Positions 4,889 through 52,682 of a DNA stretch of 64,000 nt are shown one piece after another. A program made the position numbers and the translations under genes. Location of the stretch: positions 5,082 through 69,081 of the forward strand of contig DASZRC010000012.1 in assembly GCA_035549315.1 (NCBI GenBank), in the 5' to 3' direction. The notes beneath the pieces are model-generated. The model was not told where the DNA came from. It did no database searches and saw only the letters and a list, made by a program, of their open reading frames with translations. The stretch comes from Patescibacteria group bacterium (GTDB lineage Bacteria; Patescibacteriota; Microgenomatia; Levybacterales; GWA1-39-11). Positions within the stretch are counted from its first letter, which is position 1. Each line of letters begins with the position of its first letter.

Positions 4889-4895
4889 ACATAAT

Positions 4896-17346: not shown

Positions 17347-17362
17347 AGCAAGTCTTCTTTTG

Positions 17363-17447
17363 TGCCGAGGATAGGATTCGAACCTATGTAGCCCGAACGG
17401 GCGACAGATTTACAGTCTGTTACGATTGACCACTCCGTCACCTCGGC
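17363..17447 (-). tRNA. tRNA-Tyr (GTA), type II with long variable arm
   Basis: Manual fold: acceptor GCCGAGG/CCTCGGC, D-arm with GG, anticodon stem ACAGA/TCTGT, loop CTGTAAA (anticodon GTA), variable arm CGCCCGTTCGGGC, T-arm ATAGG-TTCGAAT-CCTAT, discriminator A; CCA not encoded. Confidence 0.85.
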
Positions 17448-17509
17448 GTAAATATGATTTTACAGGATTTCAGGCTCAAAATAAAGACTTTACTGTTATA
17501 ATAATTTAA

Positions 17510-18070
17510 ATGAGATATATTGTTGGAATTGTAGGAGAAAATGGCGCCGGTAAAGATAACTTTACTATATTTCTCAAGGCCGCAGCGGCTCCCCGCTCTG
17601 TATCAAGAGTTAGATTTTCAGATGTTTTAGTTGAAACCCTAAAGCTTTGGGGAATAGATAAAACTAGAGCTAATCTTCAGAATTTAGCCATAATTATGGA
17701 TAAGCAGTTTGGTCCAGGAACCGTAACTCATGCTGCAGAGGCAAGACTTAAGAGGCAAAAGGCAGATATTGTAATAATCGAGGGCATTCGTTGGCAAACA
17801 GATGTCCCTATGATTAAATCAATGAAAAATAGTTTTATTGTGTATGTAACCGCCTCTCCTAAGACTAGATATGCCAGAATGAAGGCTCGAGCTGAAAAAG
17901 TTGGAGAAGATAAAGCAACTTACGAGCAGTTCCTTAAAGAAGAAGAAGCTGCAACTGAAACAGATATTCCAAAGATTGGGAAAACTGCTGACTTCAAAAT
18001 AGAAAATGATGGTGATATAGACGAGTTTAGGAAAAAAGTTGAAGAATTCTACATAAAACTTAAAACATAA
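17510..18070 (+). CDS. P-loop NTPase, nucleoside/nucleotide-kinase-like
   Basis: Walker A 'GIVGENGAGKD' at the N-terminus; size (186 aa) and layout resemble small dNMP/dephospho-CoA-kinase-like proteins; specific function not assignable. Confidence 0.45.
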   Translation: MRYIVGIVGENGAGKDNFTIFLKAAAAPRSVSRVRFSDVLVETLKLWGIDKTRANLQNLAIIMDKQFGPGTVTHAAEARLKRQKADIVIIEGIRWQTDVPMIKSMKNSFIVYVTASPKTRYARMKARAEKVGEDKATYEQFLKEEEAATETDIPKIGKTADFKIENDGDIDEFRKKVEEFYIKLKT

Positions 18071-18128
18071 AACTTAAAACTAATAACTGGTAAATATGTT
18101 CTCTTCTTGATAAAATTTAGGTTCAAAC

Positions 18129-18200
18129 GCCCTCGTGGCTCAGTGGTAGAGCGAGTTCTTGGTAAGAACTAGGTCATGGGTCCGATTCCCGTCGAGGGCT
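18129..18200 (+). tRNA. tRNA-Thr (GGT)
   Basis: Manual fold: acceptor GCCCTCG/CGAGGGC, D-arm GCTC-AGTGGTA-GAGC, anticodon stem AGTTC/GAACT with loop TTGGTAA (GGT); T-arm ATGGG-TCCGATT-CCCGT has C at position 55 (non-canonical); discriminator T. Confidence 0.7.
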
Positions 18201-18245
18201 CTAATTAACCTAAAGCTTAAACGTAAAACATAGAACTTAACAAAT

Positions 18246-42124: not shown

Positions 42125-45100
42125 TTAGTGAGCAACGGCCTGTATTGTTACGTCAACAGATTGTTGACTACTGCAGGCGGTTGAAGTAGGAGTTGTTAGC
42201 TTTAGGTCAAAAGCCTGTGTTCCATTTGCCGCCAAATTTCCGGACCCCAGAGCTTGATAGCTTGTTGTAAGAGGGGTCCAGTTGCTGCCACTGTTGGTAG
42301 AAAATGAATGTACATATTGATCTGTTCCGCTTGATGAGCTTAGTGTCCATGGGCAAGAGGTATTTTGCCCGGATATATTAAAATCTTCTGCCACATTTCC
42401 GTTATTAGTAGCTGTTTGAGTATCATTAAGACCTGAGGCTGTTGTATCTTTGTTTTGATTTATTGACATCACTCCATAAGATACGGTTCCATCGGCAACA
42501 GAAACCGATATAACAGTACTTAATCCTCCCCAGGCAACATACCAATATGTGGTTGATGAGGCATTCGTTTCGGAAGCTGTTCCAACACTAAATCCATCAA
42601 GATCAAGGCTTGTTATTGCATTTGTTATACTAGCAACGTTAATAAAGGGGAGTGCAAAATTTCCTACGCCATCGCTTGTTCTTTGAATACCTCTTGTTGC
42701 AGTTCCAGCTGATCTTTTTACCCATAGATAGTCTGGCTGAAGTCCAACACTTGAAACACCATGTGAGGATCCTGTTCCGGAATATGACCCGACTTTAAAG
42801 TTTGTCCCAGTTTTAAACCCAAAGTACCAATAAATATTAGCTGCCGTGTTTACATTTGCAGTAGTTCCAATCTGAAATCCGTCAGAATTTAAAGTTTGAA
42901 TGTTGTTAGCAGTGTCATTAGTTGCTGCAAAGAAAGCAGATGTGTCTCCAGCTTGAGATGAGCTTCTAAAGGTTCCACCCGTGGCACCGCTTCTTTTTAC
43001 CGTTACCATATCGGCCTGAAGTGGTAGGCGGCCAATATTTGTATTGTCTATTCCATTTCCATAGTAGGCGCCAATATAAAAATCAGAAGCGCCCGTGGCA
43101 GTCATAGGGTTCCATGCATTTCCGTAAGCCACCCAATAATATGTCACACCGGTGCTGTTTGCTGTTGTGCTGGTTCCTACAGTAAAACCATTAGGATTAA
43201 TTGCCGTTATTGCTCCTGCAAGATTTGCTGTTGCGCTATCTAAATATGCCGTGGAATCTCCACCCATCATGCTGGTTCTAAAAACACCGGCTTGTGCTGT
43301 ATCTCCCTTTATTATAATTAGGTCAGGCTGAAATCCTAAATTAGTTATTCTTTGATACGCACCATTTCCCGTATATGTTCCTTTTGCCATTTCAAAAGAG
43401 CCACTTGATGAATGATCAGAAGCGCCACCAAAAGCAGCATAATAAATTGTATTACCACTTCCATTGGACATAGAATTTGTACCTACACTAAATCCATCTG
43501 AATCAAGTGAAGTTATGACTCCTGTTGAATTAGCAGTTTTGGTGAAAAGACTTGAGTTGTTTCCATACGACTCGGGTGTATTATAAACAGCAGAAACTGG
43601 AGTAACTGCATCTGCATTTTTAACAAAGACCCAGTCGGGAGAGAATCCTACTCCGGTTATTCCATGGGCAGATCCTGTTCCTGAATAGGAGCCAACCTTA
43701 ACGGCATTTGCAGTATTTTTGAATGCCACAAAATAATAAATTCCTCCACTTGCATTATTTGTTGTGCCAACTGTAAACCCGGTTGAATCAAGAGTTGTGA
43801 AGAGTGCTCCTGTTGTATCTTGAGCCGTGGCATCAAAGTATTGGCCAACATTCGTTCCCATGGAAGAAGTTCTAAATGTTCCTGTGACAGCTGTTGAGCG
43901 TTTGATCCAAGTAAGGTCTGGCTGAAAACCTACATTCGAAATAGATTTTGTTGCATTGCCATCACCCTGATATTCTCCAATGCAAAACATGCCGGATGCT
44001 GAGCAATCTGATCCGGCAAAAGCAATCCAAGTGACTCTAACATTTGCAGTACTTTGAGTTCCGGAGACTGTAAATCCGTCATCTTCCAAATTGACCCACC
44101 CAGTTGTATTATCAGCAGTCGAAATAAAATAAGACGTATTAGGGCCGGGCATTAGAGTTGTTGAAAACATTGCGCCAAGAGTGTTCGAATCAGATTTTAG
44201 AATAACAAGTTGAGGTCTAAAGCCAAGCCCTGTTATTTGAACAGGATTTGTGTTTCCTATATAGTATCCCGTCTGCATTTTAAAGGTTGGTGTTGTAGGA
44301 GAAAAATTATCTTTCCATGCAACATACCAATATGTGTTTGAATTTGTATTTGCTTCAGCCGCTGAACCTACGGAAAATCCGTTAGATAGAATACTCGTAA
44401 CTGCATTGTTTACATTTGCTGCATTTAAAAAAGGTAAAGAACTATTTGCAGCACCATCACTTGTCCTTAGGATAGATTGTGTTGTACCGGATCGTTTTAT
44501 CCATATATTGTCCGGTTGAAAACCTACGGATGTTATATTTTGAGAGCTTCCGTTCCCACCATATTGACCTACTTTAAATTCGGAGCCATTTTTAAACCCA
44601 AAGTACCAATATACATTTGCCGCCGTATTCACATTCGCAGTAGTTCCCACCTGGAATCCGTCAGATGTAAGCGATTGTACGTTATTTGCAGTATCAGCTG
44701 TGGCTGTAAACAGGGCAGAGGTGTCACCTGCTTGAGCAGAGGTTCTAAATACGCCAGCTGTTGCACCGCTTCTTTTTACTGTTACCATATCTGCTTGAAA
44801 CGGTAAGCGGGTAATGTTTCTATTATCCGCTCCATTTCCATAGTAGGCGCCAATATAAAAATCGGAGGCCCCACTATTTGCCGCCGGATTCCATGCGTTT
44901 CCATAAGCCACCCAATAATATGTCGCCCCGGCACTATTAACCGTTGCGTTTGTTCCCACGGTAAAACCTTTTGGATTTATGGCGATGATCCCTCCGGAGA
45001 AATTTGCAACAGCGTTTCCAAAATATGCAGTGGAATCCCCACCCATCATGCTGGTTCTAAAGACCCCATATTGCGCTGTGTCTCCTTTAATAATTATTAG

Positions 45101-46192
45101 GTCAGGTGAAAATCCTAGGTTTGAAACAATAATATTACTGCCAGTGCCCGTGTAAGTGCCGCTTTCCATTTTGAATGTTCCGCTCCCCGGTGATAGTGAA
45201 CTTGCCCCTGCAAAAGCAGCATAATAAATTGTATTACCGCTTCCATTGGACATAGAATTTGTTCCCACACTAAATCCATCTGAATCAAGTGAAGTTATGA
45301 CCCCTGTTGAATTAGCGGTTGCTGTAAATAAGCTGGAATTATCCCCGTAAGATTCATTTGTGTTATAAACAGCAGAAACGGGAGTAACTGCATCTGCATT
45401 TTTAACAAAGACCCAGTCGGGAGAAAATCCTACTCCTGTTATTCCATGGGCAGATCCCGTTCCTGAATAACTACCAACCTTCATTGCTCCGGATGAGTTT
45501 TTGAATGCCACATAATAATAAATTCCACCACTTGCATTATTTGTTGTGCCAACTGTAAACCCGGTTGAATCAAGAGTTGTGAAGAGAGCGCCTGTTGTAT
45601 CTTGAGCGGTCGCCGCAAAGTATTGGCCAACATTCGTTCCCATAGAAGAAGACCTCCAGTTGCCGGCGACTGCAGTTGTTTGTTTTACCCATACAAGATC
45701 CGGTTGAAAGCCAACCGAGGTAATAGACTGTGTAGAATTTCCATTTCCGGAATATGCTCCAATACAAAAAGTTCCTGATGAACTACAATCCGCGCCCGTG
45801 AATGCAATCCATGTGTACCTAATATTGGCAGTGCTCATAGTGCTTGATACTGTGAAGCCGTCGACTTCTAAATTAACCTGTCCTGTTGTGTTGTCAGCGG
45901 TAGCAATGAAAAAAGCCGTATTAGGGCCGGGCATTAATGTGGTGGAAAATACAGCTCCGGAGGTATTTGTATCAGACTTAATTATTACCAGTTGTGGTTT
46001 AAATCCAAGACCAGTTATATGAACTGGATTTGTGTTCCCCACGTAGTATCCTGTCTGCATAGAAAAAGTTGAAGCGTTTGCCACTTTGGTTTTCAATGGA
46101 AATGCGGGATTTTGTAGCAGTGGTGGCCAGCCTGTAAATAGCCAGAATAACAACAGTAAAACAGTAAAGCTTTTTTTGACTGTACGTTTCAT
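42125..46192 (-). CDS. giant secreted repeat protein (1,355 aa): 12 ~90-aa sub-repeats in two ~590-aa super-repeats plus C-terminal shared surface domain
   Basis: Signal peptide; sub-repeat consensus G.Y.G.G.....I...GF.PD...(I/V)K.......(F/W)R(T/S)S.M.......F....(G/N)..(L/I)...GF.VG........YY(W/Y)(V/F)A(F/Y); C-terminal domain homologous to the 41544 ORF. Confidence 0.7.
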   Translation of the reverse strand: MKRTVKKSFTVLLLLFWLFTGWPPLLQNPAFPLKTKVANASTFSMQTGYYVGNTNPVHITGLGFKPQLVIIKSDTNTSGAVFSTTLMPGPNTAFFIATADNTTGQVNLEVDGFTVSSTMSTANIRYTWIAFTGADCSSSGTFCIGAYSGNGNSTQSITSVGFQPDLVWVKQTTAVAGNWRSSSMGTNVGQYFAATAQDTTGALFTTLDSTGFTVGTTNNASGGIYYYVAFKNSSGAMKVGSYSGTGSAHGITGVGFSPDWVFVKNADAVTPVSAVYNTNESYGDNSSLFTATANSTGVITSLDSDGFSVGTNSMSNGSGNTIYYAAFAGASSLSPGSGTFKMESGTYTGTGSNIIVSNLGFSPDLIIIKGDTAQYGVFRTSMMGGDSTAYFGNAVANFSGGIIAINPKGFTVGTNATVNSAGATYYWVAYGNAWNPAANSGASDFYIGAYYGNGADNRNITRLPFQADMVTVKRSGATAGVFRTSAQAGDTSALFTATADTANNVQSLTSDGFQVGTTANVNTAANVYWYFGFKNGSEFKVGQYGGNGSSQNITSVGFQPDNIWIKRSGTTQSILRTSDGAANSSLPFLNAANVNNAVTSILSNGFSVGSAAEANTNSNTYWYVAWKDNFSPTTPTFKMQTGYYIGNTNPVQITGLGFRPQLVILKSDSNTLGAMFSTTLMPGPNTSYFISTADNTTGWVNLEDDGFTVSGTQSTANVRVTWIAFAGSDCSASGMFCIGEYQGDGNATKSISNVGFQPDLTWIKRSTAVTGTFRTSSMGTNVGQYFDATAQDTTGALFTTLDSTGFTVGTTNNASGGIYYFVAFKNTANAVKVGSYSGTGSAHGITGVGFSPDWVFVKNADAVTPVSAVYNTPESYGNNSSLFTKTANSTGVITSLDSDGFSVGTNSMSNGSGNTIYYAAFGGASDHSSSGSFEMAKGTYTGNGAYQRITNLGFQPDLIIIKGDTAQAGVFRTSMMGGDSTAYLDSATANLAGAITAINPNGFTVGTSTTANSTGVTYYWVAYGNAWNPMTATGASDFYIGAYYGNGIDNTNIGRLPLQADMVTVKRSGATGGTFRSSSQAGDTSAFFAATNDTANNIQTLNSDGFQIGTTANVNTAANIYWYFGFKTGTNFKVGSYSGTGSSHGVSSVGLQPDYLWVKRSAGTATRGIQRTSDGVGNFALPFINVASITNAITSLDLDGFSVGTASETNASSTTYWYVAWGGLSTVISVSVADGTVSYGVMSINQNKDTTASGLNDTQTATNNGNVAEDFNISGQNTSCPWTLSSSSGTDQYVHSFSTNSGSNWTPLTTSYQALGSGNLAANGTQAFDLKLTTPTSTACSSQQSVDVTIQAVAH
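42560..46120 (-). repeat. recent ~1.78 kb tandem duplication inside the giant gene
   Basis: Near-identical stretches offset by ~1775-1785 nt (CCATGGGCAGATCC[T/C]GTTCCTGAATA at ~43660 and ~45445; TTTTAAACCCAAAGTACCAATA at ~42815 and ~44590). Confidence 0.75.
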
Positions 46193-46193
46193 A

Positions 46194-47087
46194 TTATTTT
46201 ATTACACGCTGTCCAAGTCTTAAAAATTCAAGGATATTAATAAGCGCAGGATTATTCACTGCAATAATATTTCCATTTTCCGCAGAGACATGAATAGATA
46301 TTGGAAGTTTTAAAGTTAATAATCCAAGAATTTGAAAATTTTGCAATCCACTAACTACATATACGGGTTTATTGTCAACTGCTTTAAGAATAGAAGTTAT
46401 GCTTGATGGAATAATAAATGAGCCTTGGGTTTTAATAGCATCTATTACCTTAACGGGTGCAATAACTTCATATGTTTTTCCGTCAATGACTACATTAATC
46501 TTTTCGCGCGTTGTATCAAGTTGCACGGGCAAGGATGTTTCTGTTTGTGTATCTCCTTGAGTTATCACTAAATTTCCACTGGAAGTAGCAGGTGTAATAG
46601 TTAATGTGCCATTATTTATTGACTCCATAATTATTTCATCTACAGATTGAGTTGTTGAATCAGTTGGGCTAGTTATCGTGGCTATTAGCGTGTTTTCTGG
46701 TATAGAAGTTGGAGTGGGAGTTGAAGTTGACTCCGGAGAGTTTGTAGGAGTTGGAGTGGAGTTTGGTGCAGAAGTAGGTGTGGGGGAAGGAGTAGAGGTA
46801 GGGGTAAGGGTTGGAGAGGGAATTGGCGTATCAGTGGGAATAAAAGAAGAAACACTTACGGTTATGATAATTCCAGATGATGCACCCAGGACATTGCTTT
46901 TGTAAAGTTTTTTATCTAAAAAAAGATATTTATCAATACTGCCGTTATCAGATAAAAATAATACTCTGCCATCAGATTTTATAACAAGAGATTTAGCATA
47001 TATAGAGTAGGGGTTAATAAAAAGAAAAAGAATAACAAAACAAAAAAGGGTTGAAATTTTAAGCCACATGTAGCTAAATTGTATCAA
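46194..47087 (-). CDS. secreted protein with long PT/ST-rich linker (cluster member)
   Basis: Hydrophobic N-terminus; 'PTDTPIPSPTLTPTSTPSPTPTSAPNSTPTPTNSPESTSTPTPTSIP'; stop 1 nt before the giant gene's start codon. Confidence 0.55.
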   Translation of the reverse strand: MIQFSYMWLKISTLFCFVILFLFINPYSIYAKSLVIKSDGRVLFLSDNGSIDKYLFLDKKLYKSNVLGASSGIIITVSVSSFIPTDTPIPSPTLTPTSTPSPTPTSAPNSTPTPTNSPESTSTPTPTSIPENTLIATITSPTDSTTQSVDEIIMESINNGTLTITPATSSGNLVITQGDTQTETSLPVQLDTTREKINVVIDGKTYEVIAPVKVIDAIKTQGSFIIPSSITSILKAVDNKPVYVVSGLQNFQILGLLTLKLPISIHVSAENGNIIAVNNPALINILEFLRLGQRVIK

Positions 47088-47178
47088 CTAAATCTAAATA
47101 AATGAAGGTGAGAGTCTTGCAGGTGGATAGATGTTACCGTGTTGTTGGTTCTAAATGTGGTAGCTTTGCTGGAACTTA

Positions 47179-47703
47179 TTATGTTGGATAGATCCTATAT
47201 TCCACCTCATCTAGAACGTTTCCTTGTAGATTGGTTTTTAAATATTCATTCTCAACAATTCCACCTAGGCTTTCAGCAATTTTTCTGCTTGCCGTATTTT
47301 TCTTATCAACGGGGTAAATAATGTATTTGTAATATAAATTTTTATCTATCCATTTCTTTAAAGCGGTGACAGCTTCTCTTCCATATTTATTTCCATGAGC
47401 ATTTTTCTTTATCCATATGCCTAATTCTGGGGTATCAGAGTTGAGATGATTAATTCCACCATGACCTAAAAACTCTCCAGTTTCTTTGTTGAGTACTACA
47501 ACCTGAAATTGTTCACCTGCTTCCATTTTTTCTCTTGAAGACTTAATGAAAGTTAATGTTTCTGAAATGTCATCTGCTGGTTTTGGATACATGTATTCAG
47601 TTATCTCTTGGGTTAATTCTTTGTAAATATCTTGAGCGTATTTTTCCGAAGTTGGGAGCAATTTTAACCGCTCTGATTCAATAATTTCGCTAAATAAGTT
47701 CAT
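47179..47703 (-). CDS. GNAT family N-acetyltransferase (RimJ/RimL-like)
   Basis: 'QFQVVVLNKETGEFLGHGGINHLNS...GIWIKKNAHGNKYGREAVTALKKWI' acetyl-CoA-binding pattern; extended -10 (TGATATAAT) 9 nt upstream of ATG. Confidence 0.7.
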   Translation of the reverse strand: MNLFSEIIESERLKLLPTSEKYAQDIYKELTQEITEYMYPKPADDISETLTFIKSSREKMEAGEQFQVVVLNKETGEFLGHGGINHLNSDTPELGIWIKKNAHGNKYGREAVTALKKWIDKNLYYKYIIYPVDKKNTASRKIAESLGGIVENEYLKTNLQGNVLDEVEYRIYPT

Positions 47704-47744
47704 TAGAGAAATTATATCAAAAGCGGTACGTTCGAGTCCCTTTG

Positions 47745-47776
47745 GTAGGCCTAAGTAACTATGTTAGAACGTATTA
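47745..47776 (-). repeat. cassette-boundary repeat A4 (GTAGGCCTAAGTAACTATGTTAGAACGTATTA), degenerate tRNA-Trp 3'-core
   Basis: Ends with the stop codon of the 47774..48352 gene; aligns with A1-A3. Confidence 0.5.
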
Positions 47777-48352
47777 TAGCCTTGGCCACTCTGAGGGATT
47801 AGAGAATATCTTTTTATCTTCACGATATACGGGGATAGAGCTAGGTTTCGTAACTTTAGTTCCTTCAGCGTATGCTTGGCAGCTAGTATGAATACTTCCA
47901 TACTTTTTAATTCTTCTAGCTGCTTCTTCTTTTGATAACTTTTGATATTCCTGCCAGGTCATACAGATTTCAGGATGATAATAGGCAACCGTTCCAGTAT
48001 CTACTATTGCAGCCATTCTGAAATCTTGCAAATCAGGCCGCACTTCATAAGAGACTTTTACACACTTTTGATATTTGATAGGTGTAAAGATGACATACCA
48101 ATCTGTGCAAATAGATTCCGAAGGTCTTATCTCAGAAAGAGTTGTTGGATATTTTCCATGAATTGACTTGTAATCTTTGACTTCCTTTCCAAGTTGTGCC
48201 ATTTGGACATCGATTAGATTCCAAGTTCTTGTCTCGTTATAAAGGGGGTCGATAAATTTATATACAAAATAACCTACAACAAGTATTAAAAATAAAGCTA
48301 GTACAAAATAAATGCGTTTTTTGTTCCTGCTTTGGGTATGAATCTTGCCCAT
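47774..48352 (-). CDS. hypothetical N-terminally membrane-anchored protein (cassette gene)
   Basis: TM 'IYFVLALFLILVVGYFVY'; Cys-containing ectodomain; own TATAAT promoter. Confidence 0.5.
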   Translation of the reverse strand: MGKIHTQSRNKKRIYFVLALFLILVVGYFVYKFIDPLYNETRTWNLIDVQMAQLGKEVKDYKSIHGKYPTTLSEIRPSESICTDWYVIFTPIKYQKCVKVSYEVRPDLQDFRMAAIVDTGTVAYYHPEICMTWQEYQKLSKEEAARRIKKYGSIHTSCQAYAEGTKVTKPSSIPVYREDKKIFSNPSEWPRL

Positions 48353-48360
48353 CAGTGTAT

Positions 48361-48420
48361 TATAGCAGATTTGAGGCTAAATCCGTGACAGGCCCTAGGA
48401 AACTTTGGTGGAAGTTATTA
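48361..48420 (-). repeat. cassette-boundary repeat B1 (~55 nt; core CAGGCCCTAGGAAACTTTGGTGGAAGTTATTA plus TTGAGGCTAAAT promoter segment)
   Basis: Near-identical to 48975-49032. Confidence 0.6.
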
Positions 48421-48429
48421 TTTTAGTTC

Positions 48430-48924
48430 TTAATTATAATATTGGGGTTCACATGAAATTCCATCTATATGCCAATTATCCGTTTTACTTAAGTGAATTA
48501 TTGTTGGAACATCGGAAACATACTTGCCCCAAACCACGACATCAGCAGTGTTCCCATACTGTTTTCCCTCGGTAACATAAATCGTTTCAGGTGATTCATA
48601 TCCGCAATATGCTTTTGTTCTGCCCGACATGGAGTCTATCATTTTTTGGGTAAAGTAGTGAGTTGTGATAATCGAATCGCAATTCCATTCAGATTCAGGT
48701 TTTTTTCCAATCGTATTATTCCAACAATCAACATATTTTGTATAAAAGTCTTTTGTTAACATTGCGGGTTCTGAAAGAGGATTTTTAACTTCCGTAACTG
48801 GGATTGGTGCAACTGTTTTATTTTTCTCGAACTTCATACCGATCAAAAACCCCAGAATCAAACCCAAAAAAAGAGCGACAAAAGTATAAAGTTTCTTATT
48901 TCCGATGTTTTTAGACTTAGCCAT
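48430..48924 (-). CDS. hypothetical N-terminally membrane-anchored protein (cassette gene)
   Basis: TM 'LYTFVALFLGLILGFLIGM'; Cys-containing ectodomain. Confidence 0.5.
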   Translation of the reverse strand: MAKSKNIGNKKLYTFVALFLGLILGFLIGMKFEKNKTVAPIPVTEVKNPLSEPAMLTKDFYTKYVDCWNNTIGKKPESEWNCDSIITTHYFTQKMIDSMSGRTKAYCGYESPETIYVTEGKQYGNTADVVVWGKYVSDVPTIIHLSKTDNWHIDGISCEPQYYN

Positions 48925-48974
48925 TAGTATTAGTTTGTATAACTAAGTGTTTTTTGTCAATAGCGTCGGAATAC

Positions 48975-49032
48975 GCATGGCATTGAGGCTAAAATAAGGT
49001 GCAGGCCCTAGGAAACTTGGTGGAAGTTATTA
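48975..49032 (-). repeat. cassette-boundary repeat B2
   Basis: GCAGGCCCTAGGAAACTTGGTGGAAGTTATTA at 49001-49032 preceded by TTGAGGCTAAAAT; copy of B1. Confidence 0.6.
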
Positions 49033-49049
49033 TCCCCGTAAGACTTTCT

Positions 49050-49397
49050 TTAACAAGGTTTTAAATCTGTCACAATCATCAGTACGGGTTCGGTGTTGCC
49101 AAATCCATCTTCGGGATAAGCGATTGGAATACTGGGAAAGGGCGCAATTTTTTGAATTGGTTTGGGAAACCGTTTCAATTCCATGTTTACGTTCCTTACT
49201 TTACGACCAAGCCCATTGTCTATGCAATCTCCTTGAGATCTCCAAATTATGCCCTGTTTTGCAAACTTGACACTATGACCAGTTTGCTCAAATGCTACGG
49301 CTGTAGCGGCTCCAGTCCCAGCTACAGTTAGAGTAGCGGCAAGACCAATTCTTAAGGCTTTATTTTTTATAAAACCAGAAAATCTTTCTGTATTCAT
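49050..49397 (-). CDS. small secreted protein (115 aa), translationally coupled to upstream NlpC/P60 gene
   Basis: Signal peptide 'ALRIGLAATLTVAGTGAATAVAF'; no intergenic gap. Confidence 0.5.
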   Translation of the reverse strand: MNTERFSGFIKNKALRIGLAATLTVAGTGAATAVAFEQTGHSVKFAKQGIIWRSQGDCIDNGLGRKVRNVNMELKRFPKPIQKIAPFPSIPIAYPEDGFGNTEPVLMIVTDLKPC

Positions 49398-49466
49398 GGG
49401 AGAATTATACCAAACGAGGATAATACATCAAACCATATCAGCAATTTTGTAAAGCATTTACCTAAT

Positions 49467-50075
49467 TTATTGTTTTGGTTGAGGAGATTTTCTAAAGAAA
49501 GCAACGGTATCACCATATTGTAAAGGAACCAGAGCCCATGGGTGGTTAAATACGTGACCCATGTCGAATTTTGAGGTGACTCTTCCATCTCCCTCATATA
49601 TTCCAAAATGTTGATAATAGCCCCTTTTTATATCAGGATTAGTTCTATCCAGGCGCCCATATGCTATTATGTCTCCGGGTTGAGGCAGATCAATTAATGA
49701 ATAACCATGAGAGAGAAGGAACTGATGGCTATCTGCCCAAAACTCTCTACCTTCACCCTGATTATCCTCAAGTGCCCATGTTTCGCCCCGTCTTGTGTGA
49801 AAAACATACTCCGCACATCTATAATTGTAGTCGTTCTCAACGCTTCTCGATTCCACAATCTGAATAGTCGCAATATTACCAATACGGTCGAAATACGCAT
49901 TAGATCTTTCCATGGCTCCTTCTCGCCATCCGGTATACCATTCTTCATATGCTCTCCCTGTATATTCTTGAATTGTCATGCGAACAAACGAGGGGGTTAT
50001 GGGAACCCAAGACTGAAGAGCAATTTCCGGGGCTGTTTGTTCGGACTGTGATCCTTGGTCATCTTCTTTTGTCAT
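49467..50075 (-). CDS. NlpC/P60-family papain-like peptidase, no signal peptide
   Basis: Cys motif 'YRCAEYV'; 'PGDIIAYGRL...QHFGIYEGDGRVTSKFDMGHVF' matches the NlpC/P60 'GDLVFF...HVGIYxGxGxxIHA' His-containing blocks. Confidence 0.55.
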   Translation of the reverse strand: MTKEDDQGSQSEQTAPEIALQSWVPITPSFVRMTIQEYTGRAYEEWYTGWREGAMERSNAYFDRIGNIATIQIVESRSVENDYNYRCAEYVFHTRRGETWALEDNQGEGREFWADSHQFLLSHGYSLIDLPQPGDIIAYGRLDRTNPDIKRGYYQHFGIYEGDGRVTSKFDMGHVFNHPWALVPLQYGDTVAFFRKSPQPKQ

Positions 50076-50128
50076 AAAGCAGATGATACCAAAAAGAGGG
50101 TGTCAAATCAAACTATAAGACTATTTTA

Positions 50129-50157
50129 CAGGGCCTAAGCAACTATCTTAGAACTTA
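50129..50157 (-). repeat. cassette-boundary repeat A3 (CAGGGCCTAAGCAACTATCTTAGAACTTA)
   Basis: 14 nt downstream of the 50172..51188 stop; aligns with A1/A2/A4. Confidence 0.5.
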
Positions 50158-50171
50158 CTACTATAGTACAT

Positions 50172-51188
50172 CTATCCTTTAACGAAGCGCATTACAGTGC
50201 TTTTAGGCATTAGCTCAGGGGTTGTAGCGCTATAAATTTCAGTACGCATTTTACCTCGAGCATTTCCACCAATAGCGATTACTGAGTTAGTTTGAAATTC
50301 ATAATCAAAACGTGGGTCATATGTAGGTCGTGGTACGACCCAATTAAACATCCCGTTAACTCCCTTTGCTAATTCTATTTCAGCTTTTGTCTCTCCAATC
50401 CATAAAATCCTGTCTGTGCTTTGTGGTACGGGCTTTACTAAGTATTGATCAACGCTTGATCTGTTATGGTTTTCCGCAGGAGAGTGATTGATTGACATTG
50501 TTTCATCGTTTTGTGGTATATACGCATGACTCGTTTCATCTATGTTAAGTTCAATTCCTTGTATTTCACCATCATTTCCCTCGGGAGCAATTCCGTACCA
50601 AAAATTCCAATCTCTGCCTTGTTCACCTTTAATGAAAAGGTTATTATTCAATGCGTCTTTGATTTCTTTACCCTTCATAAATTTGCTGTTCCAAAAATAT
50701 GGATAGAAAAAAGTAGTGCCTTCAGGTAGAAGAATAGGTCTCCTTGCGTAGTTTATAACTGGAAGCCATGATGCATATGCTTTTGAACCATCAGGTTTTT
50801 CTACTTGATGAAAGTTTTTGGCAATATCACCTGAAGCATCGGAAGGAACATGTATTCCAAGTTGAGCAAAGCGACTTCGGGTGGTAAGTCGAGCACAAGC
50901 AATTGCGTAGTTACTTAACTCAAAAAACGGTTGTAGCAATATCGGGTCTATGTCAATCTCGGCTATCGCCATTCCATTGGGCGGTATAACTACATCTTTA
51001 TTTACTGCTATGTCAGGACCGAGCCACATTTTGCCCTCAAAACGGGTGTCTAATTCTTGACGAGCTTCGGCACGATAGAGTGCAAGTACTGCTTCATGAC
51101 GTGGAATAGAATATATGGGTCCTGTTTGATTTTGGCGAAATGTCTGATACGCCTCTGCAAATCCAGGAACTTCAATTGAGTTTGTCAT
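50172..51188 (-). CDS. hypothetical protein (338 aa; cassette gene)
   Basis: Own TTGATA-N17-TAATAT promoter upstream; no recognisable motif. Confidence 0.5.
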   Translation of the reverse strand: MTNSIEVPGFAEAYQTFRQNQTGPIYSIPRHEAVLALYRAEARQELDTRFEGKMWLGPDIAVNKDVVIPPNGMAIAEIDIDPILLQPFFELSNYAIACARLTTRSRFAQLGIHVPSDASGDIAKNFHQVEKPDGSKAYASWLPVINYARRPILLPEGTTFFYPYFWNSKFMKGKEIKDALNNNLFIKGEQGRDWNFWYGIAPEGNDGEIQGIELNIDETSHAYIPQNDETMSINHSPAENHNRSSVDQYLVKPVPQSTDRILWIGETKAEIELAKGVNGMFNWVVPRPTYDPRFDYEFQTNSVIAIGGNARGKMRTEIYSATTPELMPKSTVMRFVKG

Positions 51189-51239
51189 AATAAGAAGCTA
51201 TATTAGCACAAATGAGGCTAAATATCAACCTATAGTGAT

Positions 51240-51269
51240 GCAGGCACTAAGCGACTATGTTAGAACTTA
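51240..51269 (-). repeat. cassette-boundary repeat A2 (GCAGGCACTAAGCGACTATGTTAGAACTTA)
   Basis: Ends with the stop codon of the 51267 gene; followed on the minus strand by TTGATA-N17-TAATAT. Confidence 0.55.
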
Positions 51270-51602
51270 CTTTATTTCTTCTATCAATGTTTTACCACCT
51301 GGTTGATCTTTTACAAAAACGATAGCTTGTCCTTTTCCTGTGAGTGTATATAGATCTCCATCGTTCATAACAGCTTTTGTCCTTTCGTTTAACTGTCTAA
51401 CTTTTCCATTGATTGTTAATTGCGCTTTCCCAGTTATCCAGTGTAGTGTTTCTTTTCTGTAAACGTTGTGTGCGACGAGGTTCACTCCTGGATAATTACC
51501 ATCCAACTCGACTTCAGCATAATAGTGGTTATTGTCAGGTTTTTTATGAAGATTCACTTTTGCTCCTGGTAGATCATAAGTAGTGTGTTCATATTCTGCC
51601 AT
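51267..51602 (-). CDS. cupin-domain protein
   Basis: 'HWITGKAQLTINGK...GDLYTLTGKGQAIVFV' two-motif cupin pattern; 111 aa. Confidence 0.6.
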   Translation of the reverse strand: MAEYEHTTYDLPGAKVNLHKKPDNNHYYAEVELDGNYPGVNLVAHNVYRKETLHWITGKAQLTINGKVRQLNERTKAVMNDGDLYTLTGKGQAIVFVKDQPGGKTLIEEIK

Positions 51603-51645
51603 TCGACAATTATATCAAAGCTGAAGAATATATCAAACTATATCA

Positions 51646-51758
51646 GCAGGGCCGTAGGGATTCCCATTCGACTCACTTTGTTCGCTCAGGGTAAACTTCT
51701 CATCCCTCCTATTACATAAATATAAAAAATCAGACATTCGTCTGAGGTTTTATACTTT
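51646..51758 (-). repeat. L-repeat copy 2: ~113-nt element starting with an 18-nt copy of the tRNA-Trp 3' end (GCAGGGCCGTAGGGATTC) and containing a hairpin plus T-run
   Basis: ~97% identical to 52384-52496; flanked by GCAGG cores. Confidence 0.7.
51715..51745 (-). terminator. candidate intrinsic terminator inside L-repeat copy 2 (TCAGACGAATGTCTGA + T7)
   Basis: 6-bp stem with 4-nt loop followed by TTTTTTTATATTT on the minus strand; weak stem. Confidence 0.3.
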
Positions 51759-51788
51759 GCAGGCGCTAAGCGACTATGTAAGAACTTA
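51759..51788 (-). repeat. cassette-boundary repeat A1 (GCAGGCGCTAAGCGACTATGTAAGAACTTA)
   Basis: Ends with the stop of the 51786 gene; abuts L-repeat copy 2. Confidence 0.55.
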
Positions 51789-52343
51789 TTTTATAACCTC
51801 AGTAATGGGATGACCTCTATGATATCCACTTGCAAAAAATCCCATGTGATCACCTTTTATTACAATTTTGCCAGGAGATTCTTCGAAGGCAATAGGAGGC
51901 GTACCGCCTAATATCTCAAATTCAATAGGAGTGGCTCCAATTTTTAATTCCGTTGTGCTAATAGGCTTTCCAATTATCGGTTCATATTCGCTGTGTCCTT
52001 TCCTAACATCTTCCTCAAATTCGTCTGCAGTGTCATTATCTGTATAGAATATTTTTCTACAAATTGGTTGCATTTCCCATTTTCCTTCACGTTGTTTTAT
52101 GCGTAATGACTCACCTGTACTAAGAGTGAAATAAACTGATCCCTGGTCTGTCTTAAATACATTCTGAAACCTGTCCTTTTCTTTTATCTGCTTATCAATA
52201 AAACCTTGTATGAGTTGTTGTTCTTTTATTGATCTTTCTTCGTAGGGTATTCCATCAATTAAGTCTTCGAGTTTATTTTTTTCTTCTTGTAATTCGTCTA
52301 CTGTGTAAGGAAGTGGGTTTTCATTAGTGTTCTCAGAATCCAT
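51786..52343 (-). CDS. hypothetical acidic protein (cassette gene proximal to tRNA-Trp)
   Basis: 185-aa ORF; no recognisable motif. Confidence 0.5.
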   Translation of the reverse strand: MDSENTNENPLPYTVDELQEEKNKLEDLIDGIPYEERSIKEQQLIQGFIDKQIKEKDRFQNVFKTDQGSVYFTLSTGESLRIKQREGKWEMQPICRKIFYTDNDTADEFEEDVRKGHSEYEPIIGKPISTTELKIGATPIEFEILGGTPPIAFEESPGKIVIKGDHMGFFASGYHRGHPITEVIK

Positions 52344-52383
52344 ACTGCGATTATATCAAATGAAGTACGTTCGGGTCCCGTTG

Positions 52384-52496
52384 GCAGGGCCGTAGGGATT
52401 CCCATTCGACTCACTTTGTTCGCTCAGGGTAAACTTCTCATCCCTCCTATTCTATAAATATAAAAAATCAGACATTCGTCTGACGTTTTATATTTT
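52384..52496 (-). repeat. L-repeat copy 1, abutting tRNA-Trp
   Basis: Begins GCAGGGCCGTAGGGATTCCCATTCG..., ends ...TTGCAGG; the intact tRNA follows immediately. Confidence 0.7.
52453..52483 (-). terminator. candidate intrinsic terminator inside L-repeat copy 1, downstream of tRNA-Trp
   Basis: Same hairpin and T-run as copy 2. Confidence 0.3.
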
Positions 52497-52497
52497 G

Positions 52498-52568
52498 CAG
52501 GGCCGTAGGGATTCGAACCCTAAAAAAAGGTTTTGGAGACCTCTATGATACCATTTCATCACAGCCCT
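52498..52568 (-). tRNA. tRNA-Trp (CCA)
   Basis: Manual fold: acceptor AGGGCTG/CGGCCCT (one G-U), U8, D-arm ATGA-AATGGTA-TCAT, anticodon stem GAGGT/ACCTT with loop CTCCAAA (CCA), T-arm TAGGG-TTCGAAT-CCCTA, discriminator G; A1 start unusual. Confidence 0.7.
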
Positions 52569-52682
52569 TCGTCGGCGCTGCCTCCTCAGGGCAGGCCCAT
52601 TTCAAGAATAAGATTATTGTTAATACCTATTCCTAGCTTCTAATTATATTGGAATCGGCTGTGGTATTCAATTAAGATGCCA

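Follow-up and report, generated by a model that had tools for sequence, protein, structure and literature searches.

The 64-kb window (the whole stretch of DNA that was analysed), from a candidate-phyla-radiation bacterium, contains, behind a tRNA-Trp gene, a series of small genes that in our view probably form an integron-like cassette array, anchored at tRNA-Trp and assembled by a recombinase encoded elsewhere in the genome. The genes are unrelated to one another, and the repeat that closes each of them is found, similarly arranged, in many related uncultured bacteria. The array resembles an integron-style gene-collecting site, yet its recombination signal is of a different kind and no recombinase gene lies nearby.

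A repeat-bounded gene array 3' of tRNA-Trp

The preliminary description had placed tRNA-Trp on the minus strand at 52498–52568, followed by small genes on the same strand. Both features were recovered, the tRNA at 52497–52568 by ARAGORN and Rfam and the genes as nine minus-strand ORFs (46194–52343). Beyond tRNA-Trp, a member of a conserved repeat family of ~27 nt, Box 1 (consensus GTTCCAACAWAGTTNACTAGCCCCTGC), is present at each gene junction of the array. It begins at or adjoins the stop codon, and the promoter of the next gene comes after it; the Box 1 family elements of the nine junctions end in TGC. From the tRNA onwards, the features are:

52497–52568, minus strand: tRNA-Trp(CCA), head of the array (ARAGORN; Rfam tRNA, 59.9 bits)
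52384–52496, minus strand: L unit 1, a long form of Box 1
52344–52383, minus strand: R1 right module with the extended -10 TGATATAAT, 5' of the 185-aa gene
51786–52343, minus strand: cassette ORF, 185 aa, no family match
51759–51788, minus strand: Box 1 type A, containing the TAA stop of the 185-aa ORF (nhmmer E = 2.9e-9)
51646–51758, minus strand: L unit 2
51603–51645, minus strand: R2 right module (TGATATAGTTTGATA...)
51267–51602, minus strand: cassette ORF, 111 aa, earlier called a cupin
51240–51269, minus strand: Box 1 type A, containing the TAA stop of the 111-aa ORF (nhmmer E = 6e-9)
51213–51223, minus strand: Box 2 (ATTTAGCCTCA, gene strand), 5' of the promoter of the 338-aa gene
50172–51188, minus strand: cassette ORF, 338 aa, no family or PDB match
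50128–50157, minus strand: Box 1 type A, 15 nt past the stop codon of the 338-aa ORF (nhmmer E = 2e-6)
49467–50075, minus strand: cassette ORF, 202 aa, weak CHAP-like match under the Pfam cut-off
49398–49469, minus strand: IG4, a degenerate Box 1 remnant (...TTGC end), R2 module TGATATGGTTTGATG and promoter TTGATG-16-TATAAT
49050–49397, minus strand: cassette ORF, 115 aa
49001–49032, minus strand: Box 1 type B, divergent member (nhmmer E = 0.03)
48984–48994, minus strand: Box 2 (TTTTAGCCTCA, gene strand)
48430–48924, minus strand: cassette ORF, 164 aa
48388–48420, minus strand: Box 1 type B (nhmmer E = 0.009)
48372–48382, minus strand: Box 2 (ATTTAGCCTCA), with TATAAT 10 nt downstream
47774–48352, minus strand: cassette ORF, 192 aa
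47745–47776, minus strand: Box 1 type A, end decayed to GGCCTAC (nhmmer E = 2.7e-6)
47704–47744, minus strand: R1 right module with TGATATAAT, 5' of the GNAT gene
47179–47703, minus strand: cassette ORF, 174 aa, GNAT acetyltransferase (Pfam PF13302, E = 4e-21)
47119–47181, minus strand: IG8, Box 1 whose linker holds a 31-nt insertion (TAATAAGTTCCAGCAAAG...CCACCTGC; nhmmer E = 9)

The type A repeats described earlier (51759, 51240, 50128 and 47745) were confirmed by four matches with at most three mismatches in 64 kb against none in 100 shuffles. The type B repeats at 49001 and 48388 were also confirmed, as was the position of the repeats 0–15 nt from stop codons, TAA being the first repeat triplet in two cases. 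At IG4 (49441–49469) and IG8, with which the recognisable array ends, the element is degenerate or has a long linker, and IG8-like long-linker forms also occur in two metagenome loci (L048 and L071). A genome-wide REP or terminator family had been named as one alternative; within the window, the repeats occur at 47.1–52.6 kb only. Among the proposed gene identities, GNAT held, the cupin found no support in Pfam or PDB, and the supposed NlpC/P60 peptidase (the 202-aa ORF) gave as its sole match a sub-threshold CHAP domain (E = 2.8e-4).

The two ~113-nt L units are, as noted before, near-identical (97%), and each opens on the plus strand with an exact 18-nt copy of the tRNA 3' end, a sequence that the window contains three times in exact form against 0 expected. 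In L unit 1 an intrinsic-terminator hairpin is followed by a tRNA-Trp-leader-like stretch and then by this copy. The proposed descent of the short cores from the last ~18 nt of tRNA-Trp, as degenerate copies, failed a shuffle test: the A and B cores matched the 3' 30 nt of the window tRNA-Trp no better than shuffled copies did (P = 0.05–0.49), the terminal (G)CCTGC being the sole common part. Throughout the Box 1 family only CCTGC or CCCCTGC is shared with tRNA-Trp ends, and the short repeats are a deeply conserved 27-nt family rather than private degenerate tRNA copies. Longer intermediate forms connect Box 1 to tRNA-Trp 3' halves; the link between Box 1 and the tRNA comes from these forms and from positional equivalence. 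We propose that the tRNA-Trp 3' end (...GAATCCCTACGGCCCTGC) has the role of the first attachment site.

The intergenic regions of the window array combine a small set of left and right modules in mosaic fashion, the junction elements being joined in varying combinations to three right-module families. The R1 module at 52344–52383 is 85% identical to 47711–47749, and the R2 module at 51603–51645 holds the best promoter match (TTGATA-16-TATAAT, 11/12 positions). As to the idea that most units have a promoter of their own, TG-extended -10-like sites are present in four junctions; the region-wide count of promoter-like sites did not exceed that of shuffles (22 against an expected 18.9). In the metagenome loci described below, Box 2 follows Box 1 at 4 nt in 39 of 143 copies (24-fold enriched), and TGATATA-type -10 boxes are 10-fold enriched. 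True tRNA-Trp ends, copies of the tRNA end, and Box 1 are all followed by the same modules, and the junction of GC with TGATAYRGTTTG is invariant after all three.

With its position exactly at stop codons and directly 5' of the next promoter, and with a stop-codon-rich 5' flank, Box 1 could be mainly an expression signal (a factor-dependent terminator, an insulator or a mark for RNA 3' ends or processing) that imitates the tRNA-Trp 3' end and travels with horizontally acquired genes into an ordinary insertion hot spot. A hairpin terminator is found in the L units only, so the other array genes may need a different 3'-end signal. We regard this explanation as improbable: junction secondary structure did not exceed shuffled controls on either strand (z -0.6 to +1.4), Rfam returned the tRNA only and no known RNA matching Box 1, Box 1 is missing from the other ~58 kb of the window, where many genes also need terminators, and both cassette presence or absence and the mosaic junctions break at Box 1.

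Box 1 arrays and cassette differences in metagenomes

A metagenome scan with a pattern that contained no tRNA sequence yielded 119 loci, ~105 of which are AT-rich true members, and a Box 1 profile built from these loci was used to find further copies. Arrays reach up to 8 copies, and all adjacent Box 1 pairs (77/77) are on the same strand, with a spacing of 213–2730 nt (median ~690 nt). After deduplication, 36 loci had at least 1.5 kb of upstream sequence. In 22 of them tRNA-Trp was the nearest same-strand upstream tRNA, lying 358–1701 nt from the first strong Box 1, and it is likewise upstream of Box 1 in seven shorter loci. Against tRNA-Trp anchoring, the other 14 long loci have no tRNA-Trp in the sequence covered, and in one lineage Box 1 adjoins tRNA-Lys. 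In 27 of 93 cassettes Box 1 begins 0 or 3 nt after the ORF stop, and the cargo is accessory and highly diverse (66 Pfam families among 86 proteins), including PIN, HepT and MazF toxins, GNAT, Fic, NUDIX and methyltransferases. Same-strand arrays 3' of tRNA-Trp on dozens of independent metagenome contigs, together with the differing cassettes of relatives and the single-cassette indel described next, strongly support the earlier view of a tRNA-Trp-anchored series of promoter-plus-ORF units parted by att-like repeats.

A comparison of cassette content across relatives, as had been suggested, showed that four loci (L009, L013, L254 and L256) keep the glgA–phosphorylase–tRNA-Trp flank and carry unrelated cassettes. 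The tRNA-Trp of L256 is identical to that of the window, and one gene there is bracketed by the tRNA end and an exact 14-nt copy. Two further loci, L066 and L106, differ by exactly one Box-1-bounded cassette of 689 nt, present in L106 and missing from L066, with breakpoints within Box 1; the position of the crossover depends on two single-base polymorphisms. A RecA-type deletion between direct repeats of 27–45 nt would account for this indel equally well.

More generally, Box 1, Box 2 and the tRNA may be short homology handles for RecA-type recombination after DNA uptake, making the locus a "flexible genomic island" hot spot with no dedicated recombinase. No linked recombinase was found at any of ~130 loci, identity runs straight through the conserved box in the L066/L106 indel and in other pairs with shared cassettes, and the 113-nt L units on either side of the 185-aa gene have the length that homologous exchange requires. 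We nevertheless think this account rather unlikely, as it leaves unexplained why the 27-mer is up to 26/27 identical between genomes whose L11 proteins are 55–57% identical (a conservation also true of 51 copies outside the search-pattern selection) and why arrays start precisely at the tRNA 3' end with exact 14–18-nt tRNA-end duplications, the classic footprint of site-specific integration. Moreover, a 27-nt Box 1 is no longer than the minimum that efficient homologous recombination usually needs.

The same duplications, together with foreign tRNA-Trp 3'-half fragments downstream of the tRNA in L013, L117, L121 and L114, would also be expected if successive integrase-bearing islands or prophages had decayed at tRNA-Trp, each leaving one gene. 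Such an origin is very improbable: the units are uniformly 0.2–2.7 kb across ~100 loci and have intact ORFs, promoters and a terminal box that is conserved; no integrase remnant turned up when the 1119 ORFs of all loci were scanned crudely for motifs; and searches of IMG/VR and of the phage and plasmid collections recovered neither Box 1 nor the tRNA end.

A proposed model of cassette exchange by a recombinase encoded elsewhere

In the model that we favour, the tRNA-Trp 3' end would be the entry point for gene cassettes. Each cassette begins with a short module (Box 2, TTTAGCCTCA; TGATATAGTTTGATA; or R1), continues with its own TG-extended -10 promoter and usually one accessory ORF, and terminates in Box 1 (GTTCCAACAWAGTTNACTAGCCCCTGC) or in a longer form derived from tRNA-Trp. 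Box 1 supplies or abuts the stop codon and ends in the CCTGC of the tRNA. Site-specific recombination between Box 1 or tRNA-end sites may bring cassettes in, remove them and exchange them, through an enzyme whose gene is predicted to lie elsewhere in the genome. The tRNA-Trp end would then correspond to the integron attI and Box 1 to attC, except that the sites are non-palindromic double-strand sequences and the cassettes drive expression themselves.

The cassette anatomy, the arrays across the family, their anchoring at tRNA-Trp, the differing content of relatives and one cassette indel are observed directly. The site-specific nature of the events, the place of the crossover and the enzyme responsible we infer, no recombinase, circular junction or excision product having been seen. 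The preliminary description had recognised no recombinase in the window, and Pfam found no recombinase domain in its 50 proteins; the crude motif scan of the 1119 ORFs detected none either. These negative results count against the site-specific reading, as do the recurrent flank genes of the loci, which include no recombinase, and Box 1 itself, which has no dyad symmetry typical of tyrosine-recombinase core sites.

Comparison with known systems

Integrons, above all sedentary chromosomal ones (intI-attI with attC cassettes), share with the array a fixed chromosomal entry site, one direction, mostly single-ORF cassettes of 0.3–1.5 kb, a conserved site at the 3' end of each cassette ORF, and diverse accessory cargo that includes toxin-antitoxin genes and varies between close relatives. 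Unlike integrons, the array has no adjacent integrase that could be found, enters at the tRNA-Trp 3' end, relies on a non-palindromic 27-nt site conserved in primary sequence instead of a folded attC, and has cassettes with their own extended -10 promoters instead of a common Pc. That it consists of classical integron cassettes without an integrase (CALIN) is extremely improbable despite the same-orientation single-ORF cassettes and typical integron cargo (toxins, GNAT, glyoxalase), given these promoters, the tRNA anchor in place of an attI/intI pair, the lack of intI in the motif scan of all loci, and the absence of the R''/R' core pair. Box 1 as a hairpin or attC was rejected, the junctions having no attC-like imperfect hairpins.

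Integrative elements that target tRNA genes, and their integrase-less derivatives (cis-mobilizable, with tandem accretion), likewise insert in the 3' part of a tRNA gene, repeat the tRNA 3' end directly beyond the insert (over 18 nt in the window and over 14 nt in L256) and build up in tandem at one site, recombinase-less units presumably being served in trans. Their units measure several kb, whereas those of the array are single genes of ~0.7 kb, most array sites are the standardised mini-site Box 1 and not copies of the host tRNA end, and an integrase-bearing helper element was seen in no array locus. The pdif modules of Acinetobacter plasmids and other Xer-exploiting elements are similar in being small gene modules with short conserved sites that encode no recombinase, a housekeeping enzyme being presumed to act. 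However, pdif sites consist of XerC and XerD arms with partial dyad symmetry around a 6-bp spacer, a symmetry that Box 1 does not have, and they flank modules in alternating orientation, whereas all Box 1 copies are direct repeats.

The cassette array beside tRNA-Trp

The repeats that the preliminary description had placed behind tRNA-Trp were all recovered at its positions: four type A copies (0 expected by chance), two type B copies, two 113-nt L units that are 97% identical, and three exact copies of the 18-nt tRNA 3' end within the window. None of these elements occurs elsewhere in the 64 kb, and the base composition of the region is unremarkable.

Features of the tRNA-Trp locus and parts of its junctions
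52497-52568, minus strand: tRNA-Trp(CCA), Rfam 59.9 bits
After tRNA-Trp, same strand, in order: ORFs of 185, 111, 338, 202, 115, 164, 192 and 174 aa
Next after the 174-aa ORF, same strand: ORFs of 297 and 1355 aa
51646-51758 and 52384-52496: L units
Left part, type A, gene strand: TAAGTTCTAACATAGTCGCTTAGGGCCTGC
Left part, type B, gene strand: TAATAACTTCCACCAAGTTTCCTAGGGCCTGC
Left part, IG8: version carrying a 31-nt insertion
Left part, IG4: decayed remnant
Right family R1: IG0 and IG7
Right family R2, TGATATAGTTTGATA: IG1 and IG4
Third right family, including Box 2 ATTTAGCCTCA: IG2, IG5 and IG6

Among the cassette proteins, the 174-aa protein, a GNAT (Pfam, E = 4e-21), was the sole firm family match; the 202-aa protein showed a Pfam match to CHAP below threshold, and searches of the remaining proteins against Pfam and PDB sequences (three proteins queried for PDB) gave no match, leaving the earlier label 'cupin' without a match in either database. 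Exact-protein look-ups of window proteins returned matches from the same genome only. Two very large ORFs, of 1355 and 2743 aa, lie at window 42125-46192 and 4875-13106, respectively; the 1355-aa protein, encoded directly after the array, is internally duplicated and Thr/Ser/Gly-rich and is probably located on the cell surface.

In the gene-strand sense, all nine intergenic regions (IG0-IG8) are mosaics of two parts. The left part opens at the stop codon or immediately behind it (in two cases with TAA as its first three bases) and belongs to a set of related elements ending in ...CCTGC or ...CCTGT; the right part comes from one of three families and holds the promoter-like region of the next gene. 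Left and right families are freely combined across the junctions, as expected of a join located where the left element stops. An L unit is made up of an intrinsic terminator and, behind it, an extended form of the left element that closes with the true tRNA 3' end. The claim that most units carry their own promoter stood in part: promoter-like sites are present in the window junctions, the best TG-extended -10 sites being those of IG1, IG2, IG3 and IG4, but their total over the region was not above shuffles. The putative promoter boxes of the arrays are TGNTATAAT.

Contig L001 (Logan, SRR12170510_2467498), assembled independently from short reads of this genome, ends exactly at L unit 2 (window about 51680), showing that the repeats fragment short-read assemblies and that array regions are probably under-represented in MAGs.

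The Box 1 family and its relation to tRNA-Trp

Metagenome contigs were scanned with a degenerate type A pattern free of any tRNA sequence, which returned 119 loci, about 105 of them AT-rich and clearly related and about a dozen GC-rich and due to chance. The conserved 27-nt element closing each cassette, Box 1, has the consensus GTTCCAACAWAGTTNACTAGCCCCTGC and is preceded by a stop-rich A-NTAR flank; its profile detected all four type A copies of the window, at E = 3e-9 to 3e-6, and gave weaker matches to the two type B copies, at E = 0.009 and 0.03. Conservation was equal in 51 further copies outside the pattern selection and is therefore not an artefact of the pattern. Arrays contain up to eight copies per locus, spaced 213-2730 nt apart (median near 690 nt), and neighbouring copies lie on the same strand in 77 of 77 pairs. 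In 27 of 93 cases the stop of a same-strand ORF precedes Box 1 by 0 or 3 nt. The cassette ORFs are almost all mutually different, with 66 Pfam families in 86 cargo proteins, including PIN, HepT and MazF toxins, GNATs, methyltransferases, NUDIX, Fic and NYN proteins and, at locus L057, also an APH-type kinase and a glyoxalase.

Downstream of Box 1, Box 2 (TTTAGCCTCA) was found at 39 of 143 copies (24-fold enrichment), mostly exactly 4 nt past CCTGC, and -10 boxes of the TGATATA or TATAAT type were about 10-fold enriched, so that, at the sequence level, promoter-bearing cassettes characterise the whole family as well as the window. A purely regulatory role of Box 1 is a rival, less probable explanation. 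R1-type modules (window 47725-47745 and 52360-52380; L033, L056, L111, L115, L123 and L128), which separate Box 1 or Box 2 from the promoter, contain GGGAYTCGAAC. This sequence is the reverse complement of a tRNA T-loop with an acceptor-like stretch after it, and such modules apparently hold antisense fragments of tRNA 3' ends. TCGAACC shows 6-fold enrichment on the downstream side of Box 1, and the R1 motif TCGAAC, considered as an inverted-repeat partner of Box 1, was inconsistent across loci.

Box 1 is present in at least Levybacteria-like and Pacebacteria genomes, whose L11 proteins are 55-57% identical, and the copy in L016 is identical to a window copy at 26 of 27 positions. Searches of GTDB genomes with a pattern fitted to the window's own variant gave six single chance matches in unrelated phyla, neither the tRNA 3' end nor Box 1 was found in IMG/VR, Box 1 was absent from PLSDB plasmids and INPHARED phages, and a 15-nt scan for the long-form junction gave chance matches only.

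Of the 36 deduplicated loci that extend 1.5 kb or more upstream, 22 have tRNA-Trp(CCA) as the closest same-strand tRNA on that side, 358-1701 nt ahead of the first strong Box 1, and seven shorter loci show the same arrangement of tRNA-Trp followed by Box 1. The usual order is tRNA-Thr/Tyr/Thr, L33, tRNA-Trp, array, (secE-)nusG-rplK-rplA. The modules following genuine tRNA-Trp ends are those following Box 1 (Box 2 at +4, or TGATAYRGTTTGAT), and in an alignment of eight junctions GC joined to TGATAYRGTTTG was invariant, the left sides including a real tRNA end (L009, L073 and L126), a tRNA-end copy (L256 and window L unit 2), Box 1 (L057) and a decayed box (window IG4). The common downstream modules and the invariant junction indicate that the tRNA end and Box 1 are positionally equivalent.

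In the window, tRNA-Tyr and tRNA-Thr(GGT) (17362-18201) lie 34 kb from tRNA-Trp, and nusG-rplK-rplA is upstream of tRNA-Trp; the region has been rearranged in the Levybacteria-like lineage, with the array kept beside tRNA-Trp. In another lineage (L028:66-1106; also L041, L102 and L130) Box 1 lies 40 nt past tRNA-Lys and a second copy just before tRNA-Glu, so that arrays are not exclusive to tRNA-Trp. A leader, GGTTTACCCTGAGG...CGA, is conserved directly before tRNA-Trp in Levybacteria-like genomes (window 52569-52620; L013:11740-11807; L256:3090-3111); it forms a tandem repeat in L013, and a copy lies inside the window's L units.

The short type A and B cores had been taken for degenerate copies of the tRNA 3' end, a claim that fell at the level of the window, where their alignment to the 3' 30 nt of the tRNA was not above shuffles (P = 0.05-0.49). 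Across the family, the final nine bases of Box 1 agree with tRNA-Trp ends at 6.7 of 9 positions and with other tRNAs of the same loci at about 4 of 9, the common stretch being essentially CCCCTGC. Box 1 is linked to tRNA-Trp by longer forms: in L117, L121, L114 and L013, AAGAAnTTCTGGGA joined to CAAAACC and a complete tRNA-Trp 3' half stands in the place of Box 1, L048, L071 and window IG8 hold Box 1 copies whose linkers measure 31-38 nt, and the window L units keep part of the T arm. From this series of intermediates, which is not a statistical result, we infer that Box 1 may descend, in shortened and standardised form, from a site that formerly held a tRNA-Trp 3' half. Two other origins were rejected: as an antisense of a tRNA-Trp 5' half, Box 1 aligned no better than shuffles, and for a reverse-transcribed, CCA-bearing tRNA, CCTGCCA is seen at only about 13% of copies, as base composition predicts.

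At three places a tRNA-Trp gene is interrupted between C34 and C35 of the anticodon by some 165 nt of inserted sequence.

Split tRNA-Trp genes
L013:11808-12043
L117, minus strand, about 3700-3990
L121:190-420

Within the insert are a covarying hairpin that has a bulged A, the motif GAAGTTCTAAGCAGG, a second tRNA-Trp, which is complete, and AAGAAnTTCTGGGA. Inverted repeats of 6-8 nt (TCCCAG...CTGGGA) form the ends of the insert, and RNAalifold showed compensatory changes in 12 of 51 pairs. The outer, split tRNA of L013 is identical to the tRNA-Trp of the window, and the displaced outer 5' half in L117 (minus strand, about 3915-3975) has a further GC-rich D-loop insertion of about 55 nt. The insert resembles a very small element that enters tRNA-Trp and supplies a substitute copy of the gene; the alternatives are an intron and a split tRNA.

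Cassette differences between relatives and a candidate mechanism

The window belongs to a Patescibacteria MAG. Among named relatives, a Levybacteria genome is the closest, with 67% identity in the phosphorylase; the contig of a sister MAG, found via L11, stops short of the locus. In four relatives the glycogen synthase-phosphorylase-tRNA-Trp flank is kept, and unrelated genes follow the tRNA.

Gene content of related loci
L009: after the tRNA, genes for 107 and 96 aa, Box 1, 2-hydroxyacid dehydrogenase
L013: after the tRNA, a 247-aa gene, Box 1
L254: Box 1 at three places over 7 kb rich in toxin-antitoxin genes
L256: tRNA identical to the window's, then a 318-aa gene, TAAGT with an exact 14-nt tRNA-end copy, R2 module

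The R2 module lies directly after the tRNA in L009 and after the 318-aa gene and the 14-nt copy in L256, and these two loci form an occupied-versus-empty pair for insertion at the tRNA 3' end. Loci L066 and L106 are otherwise 90-99% identical, L106 carrying an extra 689-nt cassette and an extra 213-nt unit, and the breakpoints fall inside Box 1; homologous exchange following DNA uptake is the rival explanation to be set beside these differences. The Levybacteria relative has in its variable region some 1 kb of GC-rich sequence (L009:14220-15250; also L012:15161-15248), with an opposite-strand tRNA-Ser(GCT) in one strain, and this block looks like a separate foreign insertion. A relative from Hainich groundwater has an RVT_1 reverse-transcriptase gene (L255:664-1869) 1.6 kb upstream of glycogen synthase, which could derive from a group II intron or a retron.

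Box 1 is conserved in its outer parts and variable in the middle (positions 14-17), a layout like that of a spacer between two arms bound by protein; two single-base polymorphisms give weak evidence for crossovers in this middle. Beside the real tRNA, exchange has to lie within or after the last 14 nt, because the tRNA would otherwise be destroyed. The best-supported reading of these sequence comparisons is that a trans-acting enzyme would repeatedly and site-specifically insert and remove cassettes where a tRNA-Trp end or Box 1 provides the site. In its full form, to which we give slightly less than an even chance, Microgenomates would possess an independently evolved gene-capture system in which the tRNA-Trp 3' end is the fixed place of docking and an unlinked, possibly housekeeping, recombinase uses a conserved, non-palindromic, tRNA-Trp-derived 27-nt site to shuffle promoter-bearing single-gene cassettes, both inside one genome and from one genome to another.

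The genomes of candidate-phyla-radiation bacteria are tiny and are considered poor in mobile elements; if gene capture is true, a dedicated and widely conserved cassette site would be a main route to toxins, defence genes and modifying enzymes for them. Cassette PCR based on attC is in use for integrons, and Box 1 offers a simple 27-nt probe for amplifying or mining the accessory genes of these uncultured bacteria from metagenomes.

Comparison with known mobile systems

The impression that the window is free of integrases was borne out, as Pfam searches of 50 window proteins found no recombinase. Neither intI nor any other recombinase was found by Pfam among the flank genes of the other loci, where recurrent genes are housekeeping, and a crude regex motif scan of low sensitivity found none in the 1119 ORFs of all loci. 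Rfam detected only the tRNA at the locus. Literature searches returned no description of such arrays in Patescibacteria, the one paper on tRNA-Trp and Patescibacteria being unrelated.

REP, BIME and MITE elements are dispersed, occur in both orientations and are usually palindromic, whereas within the 64 kb Box 1 is limited to the 5.5-kb array, lies on one strand and is non-palindromic. In Xer/dif-type modules (pdif, IMEX) the site is 28 bp long, with two partly symmetric 11-bp arms and a 6-bp spacer, and the sites that flank a module are oppositely oriented; in the consensus reading, neither of the Box 1 arms, GTTCCAACAWAG and TAGCCCCTGC, is an inverted copy of the other, and Box 1 shows no dyad symmetry, and, unlike Xer/pdif modules, all neighbouring copies are direct repeats. 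IS200/IS605/HUH elements insert 3' of a fixed short target and have subterminal single-strand hairpins. The units described here start right after ...CCTGC and finish in ...CCTGC; junction folding revealed no subterminal hairpins, and no TnpA-like gene was seen.

As in islands and prophages that integrate at tRNA genes, a tRNA 3' segment is directly repeated on both sides of the insert (18 nt, three exact copies in the window; 14 nt in L256, after the first gene), but such elements carry an integrase inside, usually beside the tRNA, and none was found for the Box 1 arrays. Decayed conventional islands are an improbable rival explanation.

As in integrons, the arrays are one-directional and consist mostly of single-ORF cassettes with a site at each 3' end; a classical CALIN is an improbable rival reading. 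In integrons, however, intI adjoins the array, whereas Box 1 arrays lack it in the window and in the flank genes searched. Integron attC sites fold in single-stranded form through imperfect inverted repeats (R''-L''...L'-R'), and Box 1 junctions do not fold in this way: for eight junction strands of the window and both strands of a metagenome junction, z-scores against shuffles were -0.63 to +1.41, and with no structure above shuffles on either strand the junctions are neither attC sites nor hairpin terminators. Moreover, integron cassettes are mostly promoterless and share a common Pc, whereas Box 1 cassettes appear to have their own promoter-like -10 boxes. To our knowledge, integrons are not known in the Microgenomates lineage. 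The array works like an integron or a tRNA-att accretion, yet departs from the defining properties of either. If the gene-capture reading is true, it would represent a second kind of 'integron', and integron-like capture would have arisen with another site chemistry, double-stranded, tRNA-derived and without an adjacent integrase.
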